Below are positions 15,860-23,962 of a DNA stretch of 64,000 nucleotides, in pieces. Below the pieces are notes generated by a model. The model saw only the letters and a program-made list of their open reading frames with translations. It made no database searches and was not told the origin of the DNA. Each line of letters opens with the position of its first letter. The first letter of the stretch is position 1. Source of the stretch: an uncultured Planctomycetota bacterium (GTDB lineage: Bacteria > Planctomycetota > Planctomycetia > Isosphaerales > Isosphaeraceae); the NCBI GenBank assembly GCA_963845755.1, contig CAWJTV010000029.1, positions 96,001 through 160,000 on the forward strand. The letters are read 5' to 3'. The position numbers and the translations under genes are program-made.

Positions 15860-16614
15860 ATGAGACGCATTTTCGTCGCGCTCTTCACAACAATCCTCCT
15901 GACGAGCCCAGTTCACTCGACCCGGGCGGATGACAAGGATCCGCAGGCCGTCATCGACAAGGCGATCAAGGCCCTGGGGGGCGAGGAGAAGCTCAAGAAG
16001 GCCGACATCTCGACCTGGAAGACCAAGGCGACGCTTACCTTGGGTGGCAATGAGAATGACATCACGATCCATTCAACCATCCAGGGCCTCGATCATTATC
16101 GCGCGGAGGTGGAGGGCAAGTTCGGTGAGAATGAGTTCAAGGGAACCGTCATCCTGAACGGAAACAAGGGCTGGCGAGTGTTCGGTGAGAAGATGGAGAT
16201 GGATGACGACTCCGTCTCGAACGAGAAGCGCCACGATCTACCTCCAGGTCATCCCCAACAGGATCCTCCCCTTGAAGCAGAAGGAGTTCAAGGTCGAGGT
16301 GGTCGGCGAGGAGAAGGTGGGAGACAAGCCGGCCGTCACCCTCAAAGTGACCCCTCAGGATGGCAAGGACTTCACGCTCACTTTCGATAAGGAGAGCGGC
16401 CTGCCCGTCAAGATGGTGGCCAAGGTGGTCGACTTTCAAGGTGACGAGTTCACCCAGGAGACCTCCTACAAGGACGTACAAGGAGTTCGACGGGATCAAG
16501 AAGGCCACCAAGACCGAGAGCAAGCGCGATGGCGAGGACTTCATCAAGTCCGAGATCAGCGAGTTCAAGGTCCTGGACAAGGCGGACCCCAAGACTTTTG
16601 CCGAGCCCGAGTGA
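15860..16614 (+). CDS. Secreted hypothetical protein (LolA-like fold suspected), paralog 1; frameshifts near 16230 and 16475
   Basis: Signal peptide, then DDKDPQAVIDKAIKALGGEEKLKK ... FDKESGLPVK ... YKEFDGIKKATK ... KTFAEPE*. Confidence 0.75.
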
Positions 16615-16853
16615 GGATCGGGCATCAGGCCGGGGCCTGGGGCATCGCAAGCCCGAGCGGGATTCCCCATTGGGACTTCACCGCGGCCTCGGCCCGCGAT
16701 CGGAGCGAGAAGAGCCCGACGCCCCCTGTCGCTCACGCCTCGCGCCGCGTAGGATGAGGAACTCATGCCGGCGCGACCGCGGCGGCGCGATCCCACGCCG
16801 GGACGTGACACAACCGCGTCCGGCGACTTCCTCTCACTCGTGAGGCCATCTCG

Positions 16854-17614
16854 ATGAAACGGTTCCTCGGTGCGACCCTCGCAACTTTTCTCTTGGCGAT
16901 CCTGGGCAGCCCCGTCCAGGCCGATGACAAGGATCCGCAGGCCGTCCTCGACAAGGCGATCAAGGCCCTCGGGGGCGAAGAGAAGCTCAAGAAGGCCGAG
17001 TCGATCACCTTGAAGACCAAGGGGACGATCACCTTCGGTGGTAATGACAGCGAATTCAAGTCGAACGTAACCCTCCAGGGGCTCGACCACCTCCGGTCGG
17101 AAATCGAAACGGAATTCAACGGCGAACCCCGTAAGTTCGTCAGAGTGCTGAGCGGCGACAAGGGCTGGATGAAGTTCGGGGAAGAACCGATGGAGAACTG
17201 GAAGAGGACGCCCTCGCCAACGAGAAGCGACGCGCCTATCTCGAGGTCATCCCGATGACGCTGGTCGCACTGAAGGGGAAGGCGTTCAAGGTTGAGACGG
17301 CCGATGAGGTGAAGGTCGACGACAAGCCGGCCGCCGGCATCAAGGTCACCGGACCGGACAAGAAGGATTTCACGCTGTACTTCGACAAGGAGAGCGGGCT
17401 ACCGGTCAAGCTGGTCGCCACGGTCGCCGGCTTCGGAAACGGCGAGGATTTCTCGCAGGAGACGACCTACAAAGATTACAAGGACTTCGACGGGATCAAG
17501 AAGGCCACCAAGGTCGAATCCAAGCGCAACGGCGAAGCCTTCATCAAGTCGGAGATCACCGAGTTCAAGCTCGTGGATAAGGTCGATCCCAAGACCTTCT
17601 CCGCGCCGGAGTGA
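16854..17614 (+). CDS. Secreted hypothetical protein, paralog 2; frameshift near 17200
   Basis: Same motifs as paralog 1: DDKDPQAVLDKAIKALGGEEKLKK, FDKESGLPVK, YKDFDGIKKATK, KTFSAPE*. Confidence 0.75.
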
Positions 17615-18261: not shown

Positions 18262-18324
18262 ACGCGTTGAGAGAAAACATAAGTAGTTACACAATAAGGC
18301 ATTGCAACAGAAGGAATCTGCGAC

Positions 18325-18415
18325 TGCCAATTCGGGTACTGCCAATTTGGCATAGAAAACCTGAGCGAGTCGCATAGATGCCGATTTGGCAGTCGAGATA
18401 AGTGCCGATGTGGCT
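18325..18415. promoter_or_regulatory. Putative upstream activator sites for a sigma54 enhancer-binding protein
   Basis: Four related 13-mers: TGCCAATTCGGGT (18325), perfect palindrome TGCCAATTTGGCA (18340), TGCCGATTTGGCA (18379), TGCCGATGTGGCT (18403). Confidence 0.65.
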
Positions 18416-18528
18416 TTGCACTTTTTTGGGCCCCTTCACTTTTTTCGGGGGGCTTGCATCTTAATTCAGTCACCCCGATCCCCATCAGAGGCGTACGTAG
18501 AGTATGACCTGCCGCCTATTATGGCGAA

Positions 18529-18742
18529 TTTTGCGCCGCATGGCGCAAAAAATAACCCCGCGATGCCCGTTAGGGTCAAAGCGGGGTGAGTAAACGCTAC
18601 GCACCACCCATGAAGAATAATGCGAGGCGAGCAGACAGCCAACGCAAACCTGATAGCTATAGCCATCAGGTCGCATCGGGCCTCACGATGTCCTGGGGGA
18701 TCAAGGTGAGGTGAGTACCCAATAGTATCGGCTGGTCGCCTC
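18529..18742 (-). ncRNA. Putative structured RNA in the 3' region of the NYN gene, with two covarying 37-nt repeats; the distal copy may double as intrinsic terminator
   Basis: Repeats at 18556-18592 and 18681-18717 show compensatory changes; long-range stems 18624-18630/18736-18742 and 18636-18642/18728-18734; hairpin 18648-18671; TTATTTTTT follows the distal repeat on the minus strand. Confidence 0.5.
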
Positions 18743-18754
18743 TCAATCAATAGC

Positions 18755-19372
18755 TCACCATCGCTTTTCTGTCCGGTCGCTAAATGGTTTTTCGAGCCAC
18801 ATACCATCCATGAATGATTCATCAATGACCAGGTGATCGTTGGCGGCTTCACGCATGAGTCGGATGGTGCGATGATCCGAAGGGTTCGCGACCACATACG
18901 CCAGCATGACATACGCATCGACCTCCCTGGCGAGTTGGATTGCTGGGAGATAGTCGTTGTCATTGGCGACCAAGACGAGCAGGTCTGCTCGCCTCAAACA
19001 AGCGGCAGAGACCAAAAGAGTTGCCGCGCGGACATCCGTCCCCTTCTCGACATGGGTATTGAGCGGACGGTGGCAATGGCGGCATGAATCATTATGAGTA
19101 CGATGTTGGCCCTTGGAAACGGTCACATTCTCCATCCGAGCGAGCCGATTGAACGTGCGTTGCTGACGCTGTCTCATCCCACTCCGGTGTGGGTCTTGCG
19201 ACTGGACGTAATCGGCGGTGCAGAAATAGGTATGGAGGAGCTGGGTTCCACGTGACAGCGCCGCGAAGAGCTTCGTGTAATCGACATCACGAGTGTCGAT
19301 CCCTTCGGAGAGTCGATGGTCCAAATTGGTCCCGTCGATAAAGAGGAGCGAAGTCGGTAGATCTATCGGCAC
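18755..19372 (-). CDS. NYN domain (LabA/DUF88, PIN-like) ribonuclease
   Basis: LFIDGTNL, EKGTDV, VLVANDNDYLPAI...AR, LMREAANDHLVID; acidic catalytic residues present; internal CxxC (SCRHCH). Confidence 0.88.
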   Translation of the reverse strand: MPIDLPTSLLFIDGTNLDHRLSEGIDTRDVDYTKLFAALSRGTQLLHTYFCTADYVQSQDPHRSGMRQRQQRTFNRLARMENVTVSKGQHRTHNDSCRHCHRPLNTHVEKGTDVRAATLLVSAACLRRADLLVLVANDNDYLPAIQLAREVDAYVMLAYVVANPSDHRTIRLMREAANDHLVIDESFMDGMWLEKPFSDRTEKRW

Positions 19373-19427
19373 GTATTAGCTCCGTTGGTCAAGGGGACGC
19401 TGTATCAGTCGCGGCCCTTTCGCTACG

Positions 19428-21169
19428 TCACTTGAGGTTGCGAGGCCATCGCTTGACCGCCAAGTCGGCCAGGCGCCTCTGGCGTTCCTCGATTAGTCCG
19501 ATCGTCCACTTGTCCGGGTCCCTTCTTCGTGCGCTCGATTACATCGGCGGTTAACAAGATGTTGCTGGACCTCGAGATGACGGGCCGCTTCTCCGAGAAT
19601 GGCTTATCGTTGATTCCGCCGTTGTCCTTGGCTTTTAGCAGCACCATGTTCCCCAGCCGATTGCAATAAAGCTTCCGCTGTTCGTCTGTGAAGTGCCCCC
19701 ATCCTCTTATGACCGCCGGATTCTTGGGGAGGATATGTTCCAAGCTGAGCATGGTGGTATCTGCAACAGGCCTTAACAGTTCATCTGGGCTGCCTCCATG
19801 CGCCTCCTCCTCCAGCCTTGCGCAGGAAGAATCTCGCCTGTCTGCTGGATGTCAAGGTCTTCCTGCAAAATGCCGCATAGAACTTGGGATCGCTCGGTAT
19901 AACCTTATCGACACTGTGCTGGCGAGTTGTTTCGCCGTTTTGATCTCGTCCATCCTGATAGCGTGCGCTGCATTGCCTGAGAGCTGATTCGGCCGCGCCG
20001 CTCCGGCTCCCACCCGCGATCAGGAAGCGGACGACCCATGAGACGAGCAGGCGGAATGCCTTCTGTGCCTCCGAAGGAGTGAAACGTGCGGCGATAGACA
20101 GCGTGAGTGGCCGAATGAAGCTCATCTTTAGCTCTTGGGAAATTTGATCAACGCAAATGCTAACCTGCTGTTGATATTGTCCCCACTTCGCATGTCGGCC
20201 GGATTCAGGATCGCGGCGTAGTCGCTCGCATAGTTCGCCAAGGCTTCCAGGAACTGAAGCGATGGCGCCCTGCCGACGATCTTGTCTTCCATGTAATCAA
20301 ATATATTGTCTAATTTAATCGGCCCGAAGAACACGATGCTGACGTGGTGCAGATATGCTAGCAAAGGGTCTCCGTCGAAGGGCCGAATGACCCCCTCAAT
20401 CGAACTCCGCATGGTTGACCATTTTGCTTGAGCCTCATCGACGCGATTCGTCGGCATGTTCAAATAGATGATTCTTAATCATATCTGCCTGAGTAGTCCT
20501 CTGCACTCGGTCGTTCTGCGTCTTGAACATCTGATATGCACGAGACGCATTCTTGGCGGTGAGCCTCGCCACCACGGCCTTGTTATCGATGAAGTCAACC
20601 CAGGCGTTTAACGCATCCACTTTGCCGGAGTCGCTGTCGGCGTTGGCCATGATCGTGCGGACCCTGTCGGCGGCGATCTCTGTCGCCCCATCGATGAGAC
20701 GATGCGAATAGAACCGCTTCGTCGGTTCGTCCTTCCTGTCCCCCTCGCGGACCAGTACGCGAGCCATCATGTACTCGCGGTCATCGGTGTTGAGGGTAAG
20801 CCTTGGGACGTTCTCTCGAATTCTCCGGTCGCGCTTGAATAGAAAATCGTCTTCGATCGACTTGGCTTCTTCGACTTGGCCGAGACGAAGAAATGCGTCT
20901 CGTACGGCCGCGAGAAAGATGCTGGTCGTCGCGAGTCGTTGCTGACCGTCAACGACGCTTGGCGGGGACCCCTGCGTCAACACGATGGTCCCGAGAAAAT
21001 AAGGGACGCTCTTCGAGACAGCCTGATTCAGATCGTCAAACAACTTCTTTACACGTACATCTTTCCATGAATATTCGCGCTGGTGATTCGGAACGCGCAG
21101 AGGCCCATTCCGGAGGGCGCCTCCTAGGGTCTCCCGAACCACATCGATGAATTGTTCGGCCTCAGTCAT
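19428..21169 (-). CDS. DUF262 + DUF1524 (HNH) GmrSD-like type IV restriction/defence protein; several frameshifts
   Basis: VPNHQREYSW, VVDGQQRL, FKTQNDR (DUF262); LEHILPK, NRLGNMVLL...N (DUF1524); pieces in ORFs 20435..21169, 20128..20463, 19781..20125, 19423..19752. Confidence 0.85.
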
Positions 21170-21403
21170 CGGAACCCCCCTCGCTGGGCTTCATGAATGC
21201 TACCGGCTCCCCGACATTGTCTAACTCTCGAAATGCCGCACAGCGCAAAGACGCTCCCGAACCCATACAGATAACGGGACTCCTGCGATTTCTGCCGCTC
21301 GCGCGAAAGCCACCTTTTCCGTCGCGGCAATGCGCAGGTTGAACGGCACGTCCTTTTTGTCGCGCGAACGACCCTTGCCCGATTTGTGTCTTGAGGTATC
21401 CAT
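21162..21403 (-). CDS. Small ribbon-helix-helix (DUF1778-like) regulator; 3' end uncertain because of a frameshift (stop as read at 21221)
   Basis: MDTSRHKSGKGRSRDKKDVPFNLRIAATEKVAFARAAEIAGVPLSVWVRERL fits the RHH pattern; the shifted frame continues AAFRELDNVGEPVAF toward the DUF262 start. Confidence 0.7.
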
Positions 21404-21409
21404 AGCCCG

Positions 21410-21438
21410 ATTGTAACGCAATTCAATTTACAAGTCAA
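21410..21438 (-). promoter_or_regulatory. sigma70-type promoter, leaderless configuration
   Basis: Minus strand TTGACT-N17-TACAAT followed by CGGGCT then ATG (21403); no Shine-Dalgarno. Confidence 0.75.
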
Positions 21439-21450
21439 GCAAAAAATCTG

Positions 21451-21475
21451 ATTGTAACGCAATTTGCGTTACAAT
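21451..21475. promoter_or_regulatory. Perfect palindromic operator
   Basis: ATTGTAACGCAA-T-TTGCGTTACAAT; the 13-mer ATTGTAACGCAAT recurs at 21410-21422 over the -10 box. Confidence 0.7.
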
Positions 21476-21562
21476 TGGTGTGGGTAAAGAAAAACTCCGG
21501 CCGGCTGTTAGAAGCAACCAACCGGGGGTCAGACACATCCGGGTGGGAATCCGAATGGCTGT

Positions 21563-23015
21563 CTAGATGTCCGTTTCGTAAATCGCCCGCCAGTTTTCGG
21601 GGATCTGGACAAGCCACGTAGTTTTTGAGATCAAAGGGATATCGTTTCGGAGATTTCCTCAAGGCTCCTCCATCACGGATGTCACCGATGCCTTTTCCCT
21701 TCGCAGAGACGGTCTCACCGACGGACGCCCAGCGCGCTCAACTGGAGGGGCTGGTTCGTGCCAGGTCCACGCCCCAAGCCTTGGCCTTCCGCTGTCGCTT
21801 GATCCTTCGAGCTGCTGAGGAAGACCAGCCGACCAACCTCCAGATCGCCGCCGAGTTCCACTGCGATCGCCACACTGTGGGCGACCTGGCGGAGCCGCTA
21901 TCTGGTTCACGGTTTGGCCGGGGCTTCAAGATGCTCCGCGGTCGGGCCGACCGCGGAGCTTTTCCCCCCTCGGAACGGCTCGATGTGATCTCCTTGGCTA
22001 GCAGCACCCCGGGCCCACCGGATACCCCGGCCACGCGGTGGGCTCTCGATGACTTGGCGGCCGCCCTCATCAACCGGGCCGCCCATGACCGTGCCATGAG
22101 TCGCTCGACGATCTGGAGGACCCTGGACCAAGCCGATCTCAAGCCACACCGCAGCGTCTACTGGCTCAACAGCCACGATCCCGACTTCGACGCCAAGGCC
22201 CTGGCGATTTGCAAGCTCTACCTGGAAGCACCCGTGATGTACCAACGAGGACGGCTGCTGATCTGCTGTGACGAGAAGACGGGGATGCAGGCGTTGGGAC
22301 GGACTCATCCCACCCAACCGGCTCGGCCGGGCAAGCCCGCCCAGGCGCGAGCAAGACTACATCCGCTATGGGACACGGGCCTTGATCACCTCGTTCATCG
22401 TGGCGACCGGTGAAGTGATCGGCGATTTGGGACCGACCCGAACCAGTGTCGATTTCGCGGCGCATTTGGGACACGTCGCGGGCCAGTTCCCCGAAATCTT
22501 CGGGTGTGACTGGGTCGTGGACAACCTCAACACGCATTGGAGCCGGGACGTCTGCCGGCTGATGGCGGAACTCTGCGGTGTCCCGTTCGTGGCGGCGGAA
22601 TTGCGCACGGGCCGGCAACGGCGCACCTTCCTGACGGACCCGACTCACAAGCATGTATTTCATTTCACCCCGACGCATGGCTCCTGGCTCAATCAAGTGG
22701 AGTTGTGGTTCAGCGTGCTGACGCGACGGTTCCTCAGACACGGCGATTTCGCGTTCGATGGCGGATTTCGAGGCCCGGCTGCTCGGCTTCCTCGAGGACT
22801 ACAACCGGTCTCATGCCCATCCCTACCAGTGGACCTACAACGGGAACGCCGTTGGTTCGCGGGATTCCGTTCAGTCAGACACGTCGCCAACAACAGCAGG
22901 GACATGCCTGGTTCAGCCCACGGCCGCAACGGTTTCAACGGGACCTTTACCCTCCAAGGCCCTACAATCGACGACTCAAGAAAACTGGCTAAGAACTTAC
23001 GAAACGGACATCTAG
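21563..23015 (+). mobile_element. IS630 family insertion sequence
   Basis: Perfect 19-bp terminal IRs CTAGATGTCCGTTTCGTAA / TTACGAAACGGACATCTAG (TA in CTAG context); HTH part LAFRCRLILRAA, DDE part CCDEKTG, VVDNLNTH, FTPTHGSWLNQVELWFS; TTTTCCCCC slippery run near 21960 plus further frameshifts. Confidence 0.93.
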
Positions 23016-23177
23016 TAGTACTCCGTTAGATTTCCAGGCCAAAGGACGCGAGTCGGCTTTCACACAAGACTCATGGCATCGAGGCAATTTGATGCATCAA
23101 GTCTGCTTGATGTCATAAGTCATTATCCACAAATAGGTAACGTCAAAATGTCCTCTCGATCTAACGGAGTAGTACTA
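23013..23177. mobile_element. Putative 165-bp MITE abutting the IS630 right end
   Basis: TAGTAGTACTCCGTTAGAT (23013-23031) and ATCTAACGGAGTAGTACTA (23159-23177): 19-bp IR with one mismatch; AT-rich non-coding interior. Confidence 0.65.
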
Positions 23178-23326
23178 ACCCCGTCCCTCTCGGCGGGGTT
23201 TTCCTTAGACCCGTCGAATCCGGATAAAAGTGCAGAATCGCCTTCTGGACATTTATTCAGTAGTTTTCCGGGACAAAAGTGCAATGCCTCGAAAAGAGGG
23301 GGATTGGCAGTTGGAATCACGTGCAT

Positions 23327-23962
23327 TCAGCGTCGCGATGATGGGGAGCCCGCCCGGCGAGTGAGTACCAGTTCCATGATCAGCCGTTCCTTGCCGTCGG
23401 CGGTGGAGTTGTACTGACGATGAACGATACGTTCGGCCGATGTCCTCGATCCGGCTGACGGTCCGCGAGGGTGGCGGACCTGGCCCCTGGCCGTTGGCGG
23501 TGGCACGATCATCCAACGACTGGCTGAACAGGACGATCTGCTTTCCGTCGAATGGCTCGCGGCTCTGCCGGAACGACATCCGGGTCTGGCGAGAATCGGT
23601 CCAGACGGTGGTGAAGCGGCCCGTCTGAGGATCGAAGCCGGTGAGACCCAGCCCCGATGTCTTGCGGCCGTCCTGCTCGAAGACGAACTCCGACTGAAGG
23701 AACCGGCCGTCGTGGATCATCGTCTGGCGGCAGGTCCCCGGCGCCGGGACGGCGCGCCGCCGGATCGCGGATAGAACGTCTTGACGACGTCCCATTCCCC
23801 GACGAATGCCTCGAGGTACTTCTGGCCCGCCCCCGGACCGGACCGAAGCTCGTAAGCTGGACTGAGCATCTTTGCTCGCCTTGGGCTGCTGCACCGAACG
23901 GCACCGGCAGAACACGTCAACGTAGCGACCAAAATTACCGCCATCCGGTCACGGTATCTCAT
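23327..23962 (-). CDS. DUF1579-like secreted protein; several frameshifts
   Basis: PGAGQKYLEAFVGEWDV, MIHDGRFLQSEF, GLGLTGFDPQTGRFTTVWTDS, GKERLIMELVLTR. Confidence 0.7.

Follow-up and report, generated by a model that had tools for sequence, protein, structure and literature searches.

Type III toxin-antitoxin systems such as ToxIN, CptIN and TenpIN are two-part units in which a nuclease gene adjoins a repeated, structured non-coding RNA, and the antitoxin of this class consists of head-to-tail direct repeats of about 34–45 nt, which the toxin cleaves and whose processed units, once bound, neutralise it. A locus of comparable composition is described here from an uncultured planctomycete of the family Isosphaeraceae (GenBank assembly GCA_963845755.1, contig CAWJTV010000029.1), within a stretch of 64,000 nt that was analysed as a whole and is referred to as the window (contig positions 96,001 to 160,000). 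On its minus strand, a gene for a predicted NYN-domain nuclease is followed by a putative small RNA that holds two copies of a 37-nt hairpin motif. The locus appears to be a two-part module on a small variable island, in which the gene for an NYN-fold nuclease is followed, on the same strand, by that for a dedicated small RNA. Besides this composition, it shares with type III systems an accessory or defence context and a terminator at the RNA end. In the type III descriptions drawn on here, the toxin is ToxN/AbiQ-like, two to five pseudoknot units stand in tandem and the RNA lies before the toxin behind a shared promoter, whereas in the window the nuclease is NYN/PIN-like according to Pfam and the best solved fold (PDB 2QIP), the two copies are separated by other hairpins, and the RNA follows the gene and has its own promoter-like site. 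Because the toxin fold, the tandem array and the upstream RNA behind a shared promoter all fail, the locus was not filed as type III, and the likeness to that class drawn in an earlier reading of the bare DNA (hereafter the sequence-only reading) does not extend to class membership. The module is most likely a new variant among RNA-restrained nuclease modules.

Several other described systems resemble one half of this module. HEC-09 has been proposed as an NYN ribonuclease defence candidate embedded in Hma systems; an RNA partner is not mentioned where the preprint deals with HEC-09 and NYN, and its main text is free of the words 'non-coding' and 'ncRNA' (bioRxiv 10.1101/2024.01.29.577857). 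HEC-09 is a single-protein candidate with an NYN domain from a defence-island context, and the window protein may have surroundings of that kind. The PADLOC profile for HEC-09, for which PADLOC gives no curated cut-off, matches the window protein over residues 10–188 (E 6.8e-19) and, with E 2.2e-36, a more typical HEC-09-like NYN protein (28% identical) at one of the further planctomycete loci, L124. The window protein differs from HEC-09 in belonging to a distant and rare subfamily. The functionally uncharacterised LabA-like protein VPA0982 (PDB 2QIP) provides the best solved fold; it is 15% identical, and the title of its entry mentions neither a CxxC insert nor an RNA partner. The Ssn GIY-YIG nucleases are likewise encoded by small genes flanked by a hairpin motif, probably their own recognition site, and according to the sections of that study used here this motif acts as single-stranded DNA and is dispersed, its copies numbering up to hundreds, whereas the present hairpin has one to three copies, RNA-strand signals and an NYN protein beside it (PMC11893778). 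Repetitive extragenic palindromic (REP) elements and bacterial interspersed mosaic elements (BIME) are also GC-rich imperfect palindromes at gene ends; they differ from the hairpin described here, which is present twice in 14 Mb, is tied to one gene family and shows covariation. In eukaryotes, Regnase-1 (ZC3H12A), an NYN/PIN-like nuclease with a zinc-binding element, recognises stem-loops including those in the 3' untranslated region of its own message. It differs from the window module in its CCCH finger and in having no separate decoy RNA gene. The literature that was searched, mainly abstracts, contains no paper in which an NYN protein is connected with an RNA antidote or with a small RNA dedicated to it.

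A conserved hairpin in a putative small RNA

The two 37-nt copies lie on the minus strand exactly where the sequence-only reading had placed them, 125 nt apart from start to start (Table 1). The stem differences between them are compensatory, as it had claimed, CCTCAC/GTGAGG in one copy answering to CCCCGC/GCGGGG in the other and TCC/GGA to CCC/GGG. The further hairpin that it had seen beside the first copy (approximately 18649–18670) and the terminator-like T-run after the second copy are present as well. A degenerate pattern of the letters common to both copies occurs at two places in the window (mean 0.00 in 100 shuffles), and in the whole genome of 14.27 Mb and 49 contigs it finds, at up to three mismatches, only these two copies, with zero matches in the reversed control. 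At E ≤ 1 the covariance model R1 also finds only both window copies in the genome, and a 261-nt stretch containing the RNA has no other blastn match there. Since the pattern matches only two places genome-wide, the 37-mer is not a dispersed REP. Occurrence as a dispersed REP without a tie to NYN genes was among the things that the sequence-only reading had named as speaking against its proposal; two copies in 14.27 Mb were found, by pattern and by model alike, and the motif shows no dispersal of the REP/BIME or Ssn/SRM kind.

The locus is strongly structured. A 241-nt stretch folds with −113.1 kcal/mol (z = −6.72), a value equalled by none of 200 shuffles, and 175 nt (18717 to 18543) fold into four separate hairpins with a z-score of −6.52 on this strand versus −2.89 on the opposite one. 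These z-scores and the G–U pairs favour the sense strand of the NYN gene as the one encoding the predicted RNA. A multibranch closure around the first copy, described previously, does belong to the minimum-energy fold of the 241 nt. Its helices GAGGCGA (18742–18736) and CAGCCGA (18734–18728) fall in the spacer of the promoter-like site, and the pairs between this upstream part and the RNA body number 27 in the window versus 12, 4, 12, 0, 0 and 0 in six homologous loci, with no shared pattern. Not being conserved in those six loci, the closure is specific to the window and was rejected as a feature of the RNA.

No conserved small open reading frame was seen within the RNA, either in the list of open reading frames of the window or in the homologous loci that were read. 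With Rfam 15, only a tRNA reached the gathering score in the window; over 18300–18900 nothing credible appeared at E ≤ 10, ROSE and other thermometer families included, and five homologous loci gave no match to the RNA at E ≤ 1. The comparison with Rfam covariance models that had been recommended earlier thus assigns the RNA to none of its families. The RNA is a previously undescribed structured small RNA family of Planctomycetota. The sequencing runs listed for this DNA are three soil DNA runs of one study with small shares, and there is no RNA run among them.

The hairpin recurs, with covariation, directly after NYN genes in other Planctomycetota, which bears out the earlier proposal of an undescribed module of an NYN gene and a structured RNA; conserved structure is thus present downstream of NYN homologues, where its absence would have counted against that proposal. 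All of the 18 hairpins fold, each alone, into three tiers. The basal tier is a GC-rich stem of 6–7 bp, topped by a pyrimidine–pyrimidine mismatch that is missing in two of the 18. Above it follow a middle stem of 2–3 bp, in which the bulge-side pair is always G–C, a bulge consisting of A or GAA, and a short apical stem with a free loop. A conserved single-stranded flank, A/U-rich and then AC-containing, precedes each hairpin. The number of motif copies per locus ranges from one to three, with the maximum in L091, and variable hairpins stand between the copies in some loci; the two copies of class III loci stand about 48 nt from each other.

In an alignment of nine hairpins from seven loci, 96.7% of the cells are paired and six of the ten pairs have changed on both sides. 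Of the five measures, four were not attained in any of 500 shuffles, and one, further pair types, was attained in 207 of them. Controls in which the partners were slid by one to three columns had 30–42% of their cells paired. A second alignment, comprising 14 hairpins of two classes, is 96.4% paired (slid controls 38–55%), with 18 cells changed on both sides (reached in none of 500 shuffles) and five of the ten pairs so changed (25 of 500 shuffles). The hairpin is a conserved, covarying structure. It is also under tighter constraint than the NYN gene. Between L094 and L095, DNA similarity is detectable only in hairpin b, over 54 nt with 90.7% identity, and the NYN proteins of the six loci compared (L095 excluded) are 37–54% identical, but 80% between L092 and L093.

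After the stop codon of close NYN relatives (35–47% identity), the order is TTGAC-N17-GATA, one to three hairpins with mismatch and bulge, and a T-run. The promoter-like site of the window is the positional counterpart of this TTGAC-N17-GATA. A promoter scan called sites in L095 (10/12), L092 (9/12) and L011 (9/12), and with the same scoring at least 9/12 is attained in seven of the 11 loci with the RNA, nine of which have TTGAC(A/T/C) with a 17-nt spacer. If this site acts as a promoter, as its sequence suggests, the RNA would have a start of its own. The sequence-only reading had placed the RNA directly 3' of the NYN gene; it does lie there, but in most loci the presence of a promoter-like site of its own gives it the look of a separate gene and not merely of a 3' tail. 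As the site in the window is weak, the RNA there may partly depend on read-through from the NYN gene. At the other end, a run of at least four T follows the last hairpin in all 11 loci, and this last hairpin, hairpin b in the window, seems to double as a putative intrinsic terminator stem.

Linkage of the RNA to NYN genes

The scans for NYN relatives yielded at least 80 metagenome loci and 12 genome loci. The contexts compared are those of these loci and not of the nearest proteins, P0001 to P0018, which reach 74% identity. Among the matches listed, nine loci hold a close NYN homologue, and the motif lies just downstream in seven of them. The remaining two, L013 and L096, are one identical sequence on a contig that ends 75 nt past the stop codon, inside the promoter-like site; every close homologue among these matches that could be evaluated has the RNA. 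Run on 100 loci with NYN relatives, R1 detected L011, L012, L091 (twice), L092, L093, L094 and L095, all of the close subfamily, and gave no credible match in the 91 more distant NYN loci among the matches listed. A match in L106 was rejected as a plain GC hairpin.

The same restriction is seen in genomes. In the 121 genomes of the family, R1 matches are credible only in G000 and G016, both of which carry this NYN subfamily, and blastn connects hairpin b to the G016 copy. NYN proteins at E ≤ 1e-5 are found in this sample in G000, G016 (47% identity) and, distantly, G098 (27%), so that the subfamily is present in two; in a sample of 401 genomes of the phylum, NYN relatives are all distant. R1 matches in G048 (E 0.004) and G706 (30 bits) were rejected as coding-like sequence without NYN, and blastn matches in G024 and G052 were discarded as short, the former lying within coding-like sequence. 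Each of G521–G524 has exactly one R1 match, adjoining the NYN gene. The order around G522 (141 genomes) added G533, with an upstream NYN protein 38% identical, G595 with three copies and G597 with one. Nothing credible was added by the class-level sample of G522 (151 genomes), the order of G524 (45) or the class-level sample of G000 (151).

The total amounts to 11 RNA loci in nine Planctomycetota genomes. At eight of them an NYN gene lies directly upstream on the same strand, and the RNA lies within 100 nt after its stop codon; seven of these eight carry the subfamily and the eighth is L124. The neighbours of the pair differ at every locus and include a glycosyltransferase, a ComM-like ATPase, a dehydrogenase, an efflux pump, an AraC regulator and a fucosidase, among others. 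Because the flanking genes differ in every locus, the NYN gene and the RNA form a conserved unit, and since the RNA travels with NYN in several distant relatives, both probably work as a pair. In phages, the core pattern of the hairpin occurs in 37 viral contigs, about as often as expected by chance on a rough estimate, and the model finds the full hairpin in none of the 37.

A further regularity concerns distant NYN relatives. Among the matches listed, 58 loci within L017–L097 encode NYN proteins of 25–30% identity and share a conserved downstream stretch without this hairpin RNA. In the one of these that was read, L097 from a metagenome-assembled genome of Dehalococcoidales, the stretch looks protein-coding; most of the others are metagenome contigs.

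The NYN gene, its island and related loci

The window NYN gene appears to be an intact gene for an NYN-fold nuclease in which the predicted active-site residues are kept. Pfam NYN (PF01936) matches its product with E 2.8e-9 and 38.1 bits, above the gathering cut-off of 24.2. The AlphaFold2 model (pLDDT 94.6) has a PIN-like alpha/beta fold, for which 2QIP was the best solved structure (Foldseek E 6.4e-8, TM-score 0.77 on the target; profile E 2e-11). D13, K110, D113, D138 and D140 are invariant across 37 aligned sequences and are presumably the catalytic positions. Three aspartates common to an NYN candidate and MARF1 are pointed out in a section of the HEC-09 preprint (bioRxiv 10.1101/2024.01.29.577857). 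The subfamily is rare, with six representatives at E ≤ 1e-30 among 1.84 billion proteins and five matches in a word-indexed search.

Table 1. Features of the NYN–RNA locus, with window coordinates
Feature	Position	Strand	Basis or remark
NYN (LabA/DUF88-like, HEC-09-like) nuclease gene, 205 aa, with CxxC insert	18755..19372	−	Open reading frame, Pfam, fold, PADLOC
Weak promoter-like site: TTGATT (18750–18745), 17-nt spacer, TACTAT (18727–18722)	18722..18750	−	Read by eye; 8/12 of consensus
Predicted small RNA, about 170 nt, four hairpins	18547..18716	−	Ends predicted from promoter-like site and T-run
Motif hairpin a (first 37-mer)	18681..18717 (paired part 18711–18681)	−	R1 43.7 bits, E 7.4e-7 against whole genome
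Long 18-bp hairpin, window-specific	18639..18679	−	Fold; without counterpart in L091
Third hairpin, window-specific	18595..18629	−	Fold
Motif hairpin b (second 37-mer, 18592–18556)	18555..18592 (paired part 18587–18555)	−	R1 46.1 bits, E 1.8e-7
T-run TTATTTTTT directly after hairpin b	18547..18555	−	Sequence
Extra palindrome GCGCC-ATGC-GGCGC between T6 and A4 runs, just past the T-run of the RNA	18527..18552		Looks like a two-way terminator
Variable island of about 5 kb: RNA, NYN, GmrSD pieces, IS630-like transposase	18352..23327		Absent from sister species G046

The pair is located on an island that the sister species G046 lacks. There, synteny joins window positions 18351 and 23327 with 88 bp between them, and the flanks are hsp20 and DUF1579 genes. 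Broken GmrSD and transposase genes adjoin the NYN gene as possible defence surroundings, and no Hma system was seen. The GmrSD-type restriction gene (19423–21169, minus strand) is spread over four successive open reading frames, with the N-terminal domain at 20435–21169, the C-terminal domain at 19423–19752 and no Pfam match in the two frames between; decay of the gene or an error in the assembly is the probable cause. The IS630-like transposase (21625–23029, plus strand) consists of two overlapping frames with HTH_32 and DDE_3. Elsewhere in the window, at 15860–17614 on the plus strand, a tandem pair of paralogous genes encodes similar proteins that look secreted and have an N-terminal motif in common; each gene is apparently split over two frames and has no Pfam match.

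At L120 (genome G597), about 0.8 kb past the small RNA on the minus strand (approximately 560–1500), a helix-turn-helix gene of the XRE type is accompanied by a palindromic promoter region. The same region holds an element of 73 nt with two hairpins, which shares 93% identity with an element located upstream of the L124 NYN gene, and a second copy of hairpin b that has decayed (R1 19.7 bits).

NYN genes accompanied by hairpins are also encountered on small plasmids. A tblastn search with the L124 NYN protein returned 240 plasmid records, many of them ColE1-type plasmids of 3.4–5.7 kb. In seven plasmid loci (L172–L178), the NYN reading frame is preceded by a promoter-like site, 100–270 nt of hairpins and an element of A-tract, hairpin and T-tract that ends 8–20 nt before the NYN start codon; this element was read by eye and was not called by the scan. 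The leader of L172, from a 4.6-kb plasmid of Escherichia coli, is made of four tandem hairpin repeats of 33/29 nt (170–360), for which Tandem Repeats Finder reported a period of 33 with 2.6 copies and 96% matches, and a period of 29 with 3.1 copies. By eye, both stem arms of the fourth repeat have changed in such a way that pairing would persist. The layout of L172 is that of ToxIN with an NYN gene in the place of the toxin. Rfam matched only the RNAI of the replication origin in the plasmid loci. These leaders may serve as an analogy for restraint of the planctomycete nuclease by its RNA. It is also conceivable, though on balance somewhat unlikely, that HEC-09/LabA-like NYN proteins are the protein half of an unrecognised and widespread class of RNA–protein toxin-antitoxin or abortive-infection systems, each silenced by its own hairpin-repeat RNA, which would stand after the gene in Planctomycetota and before it on plasmids of enterobacteria, Leptospira and Photobacterium. 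If so, the absent defence of HEC-09 could be explained by a balance of nuclease and RNA that was off in the test setting.

Possible roles of the RNA

It is suggested here, tentatively and at somewhat under even chances, that the hairpins are the specific ligand of the NYN protein and that the RNA restrains the nuclease, type III-like in function and outside that class. The hairpin with its mismatch and bulge would be the binding site of the protein. An excess of the RNA, transcribed from a promoter of the RNA itself and in the window perhaps also by read-through of the NYN message, would occupy the nuclease and hold it inactive. Were the RNA lost or degraded, for instance upon phage shut-off of host transcription or loss of the island, the nuclease would be released to cleave RNA of the cell or of a phage. 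While we infer transcription from the promoter-like site, binding, inhibition and toxicity, the proposal starts from what was observed, namely a structured and covarying RNA of known strand that is linked to NYN, surroundings of an accessory and defence-like kind, and active-site residues that are intact. The close and oriented linkage, the tighter constraint on the RNA, the intact catalytic residues and the apparent defence-island setting speak for it, as does a distribution expected of a poison and its antidote. Among the loci evaluated, the nuclease never occurs without the RNA, whereas RNA copies do occur without the nuclease (L120, L121 and L123). At L095 the frame of the NYN gene changes near residue 137 (approximately 2880–2900), through a frameshift or a sequencing error, and the RNA is intact.

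Antisense pairing between the RNA and the 5' region of its own NYN gene was tried and rejected; in a crude whole-length test of seven loci, cognate duplexes were no better than non-cognate or shuffled ones (z −2.46 to +1.77).

A number of observations weigh against restraint of the nuclease by the RNA. The structure was derived from the very sequences on which the paired positions were then counted, and the sample is small, with nine partly related genomes, among which G595 and G597, having flanking repeats in common, are possibly closely related. RNA class and NYN similarity are discordant, since the NYN proteins of L092 and L093 are nearer to that of L094 than to that of L011, which has their hairpin class. 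In the window the scan called neither a promoter nor a terminator; the best promoter-like sites score 8/12, and the terminator was missed because the stem of hairpin b has internal loops. HEC-09 itself gave no protection against the phages tested, as stated in the portion of the preprint that deals with it (bioRxiv 10.1101/2024.01.29.577857). At L124 the hairpin is single and without a promoter-like site, and for this reason it is there simply the putative terminator of the NYN gene. Finally, the pairing of NYN and RNA proposed by the sequence-only reading holds at eight of the 11 RNA loci and fails at L120, L121 and L123, where no NYN gene adjoins, and in G597, the genome of L120, a profile search detects no NYN gene at all, so that the RNA may serve in a role separate from NYN.

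The last of these points leads to the view that the RNA stands by itself, as a small RNA or a terminator cassette, and shares mobile islands with nuclease genes without any functional tie to NYN, a view that we regard as distinctly unlikely. Such a cassette would account for the three loci without NYN and for G597, as well as for the 281-nt unit of promoter and RNA that is duplicated in G595 (L121 and L123, 89% identity). It also fits the three kinds of genes that hairpin b follows, namely the subfamily NYN, the HEC-09-like NYN of L124 and, at L120, a 159-aa protein that matches the N-terminal nuclease region of LmuA (E 3.8e-6). It is harder to reconcile with the position of eight of the 11 RNAs just after a same-strand NYN stop codon among otherwise differing neighbours, and with the confinement of the motif, in the family genomes, to the two that carry this NYN subfamily; even the orphans L121 and L123 keep upstream what appear to be the last eight codons of an NYN gene (E 0.33, suggestive at most). 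The RNA could instead be the working partner or substrate of NYN and not its inhibitor, being matured by it, forming a ribonucleoprotein that activates, localises or aims it, or carrying recognition sites of NYN for feedback on the NYN message, in the manner of Regnase-1. This view, which is considered rather unlikely, draws on the same linkage and covariation as restraint does, and the single-stranded A/U-rich and AC-containing flank ahead of each hairpin and the L124 hairpin, which lies within the NYN 3' end without its own promoter, are consistent with it. A guide function in particular is improbable, as what varies is the 4-nt loops and the hairpins peculiar to a lineage, and as nothing else in the genome matches the 261-nt stretch; for a substrate, the intact RNA copies at the three loci without NYN fit less well than for an antidote or an independent RNA.

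Two further possibilities would place the function of the hairpins outside an NYN-bound RNA. They might act as DNA, either as single-strand sites for the adjacent nuclease in the style of Ssn NTS/SRM or as sites for recombination or mobility of the cassette. The cassette looks mobile, and in the part of the Ssn study that bears on this, 71% of the homologues have their own hairpin motif flanking the nuclease gene (PMC11893778). A DNA role is nonetheless very improbable, given that one to three copies per genome are not dispersed, the fold is much stronger on one strand and has G–U pairs, the orientation to the gene is fixed with a T-run always after and a promoter-like site usually before, and NYN is not GIY-YIG. 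The idea that the RNA is a cis-regulatory leader of the downstream gene, for example an RNA thermometer, takes its appeal from the Hsp20 gene located about 400 nt downstream on the same strand in the window. It is contradicted by the downstream genes, which differ at every locus and are sometimes on the opposite strand, and by G046, which has hsp20 without this RNA; the RNA also ends in the putative terminator and matches no ROSE or other thermometer family, and a leader function is hardly credible.

Should the RNA indeed restrain the NYN nuclease, it would add a new fold and a new layout to RNA-antidote systems, and it would be the first NYN/PIN-like nuclease paired with a hairpin RNA. It would also offer a testable partner for a group of 'single-gene' NYN defence candidates in which no activity has been observed. 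The hairpin itself is compact and well defined by its mismatch, its G–C pair and its bulged A, and if it binds protein, it might be usable as a specific RNA tag. Even on a cautious reading, the locus adds a new family of structured small RNAs to the Planctomycetota, for which very few regulatory RNAs have been described.

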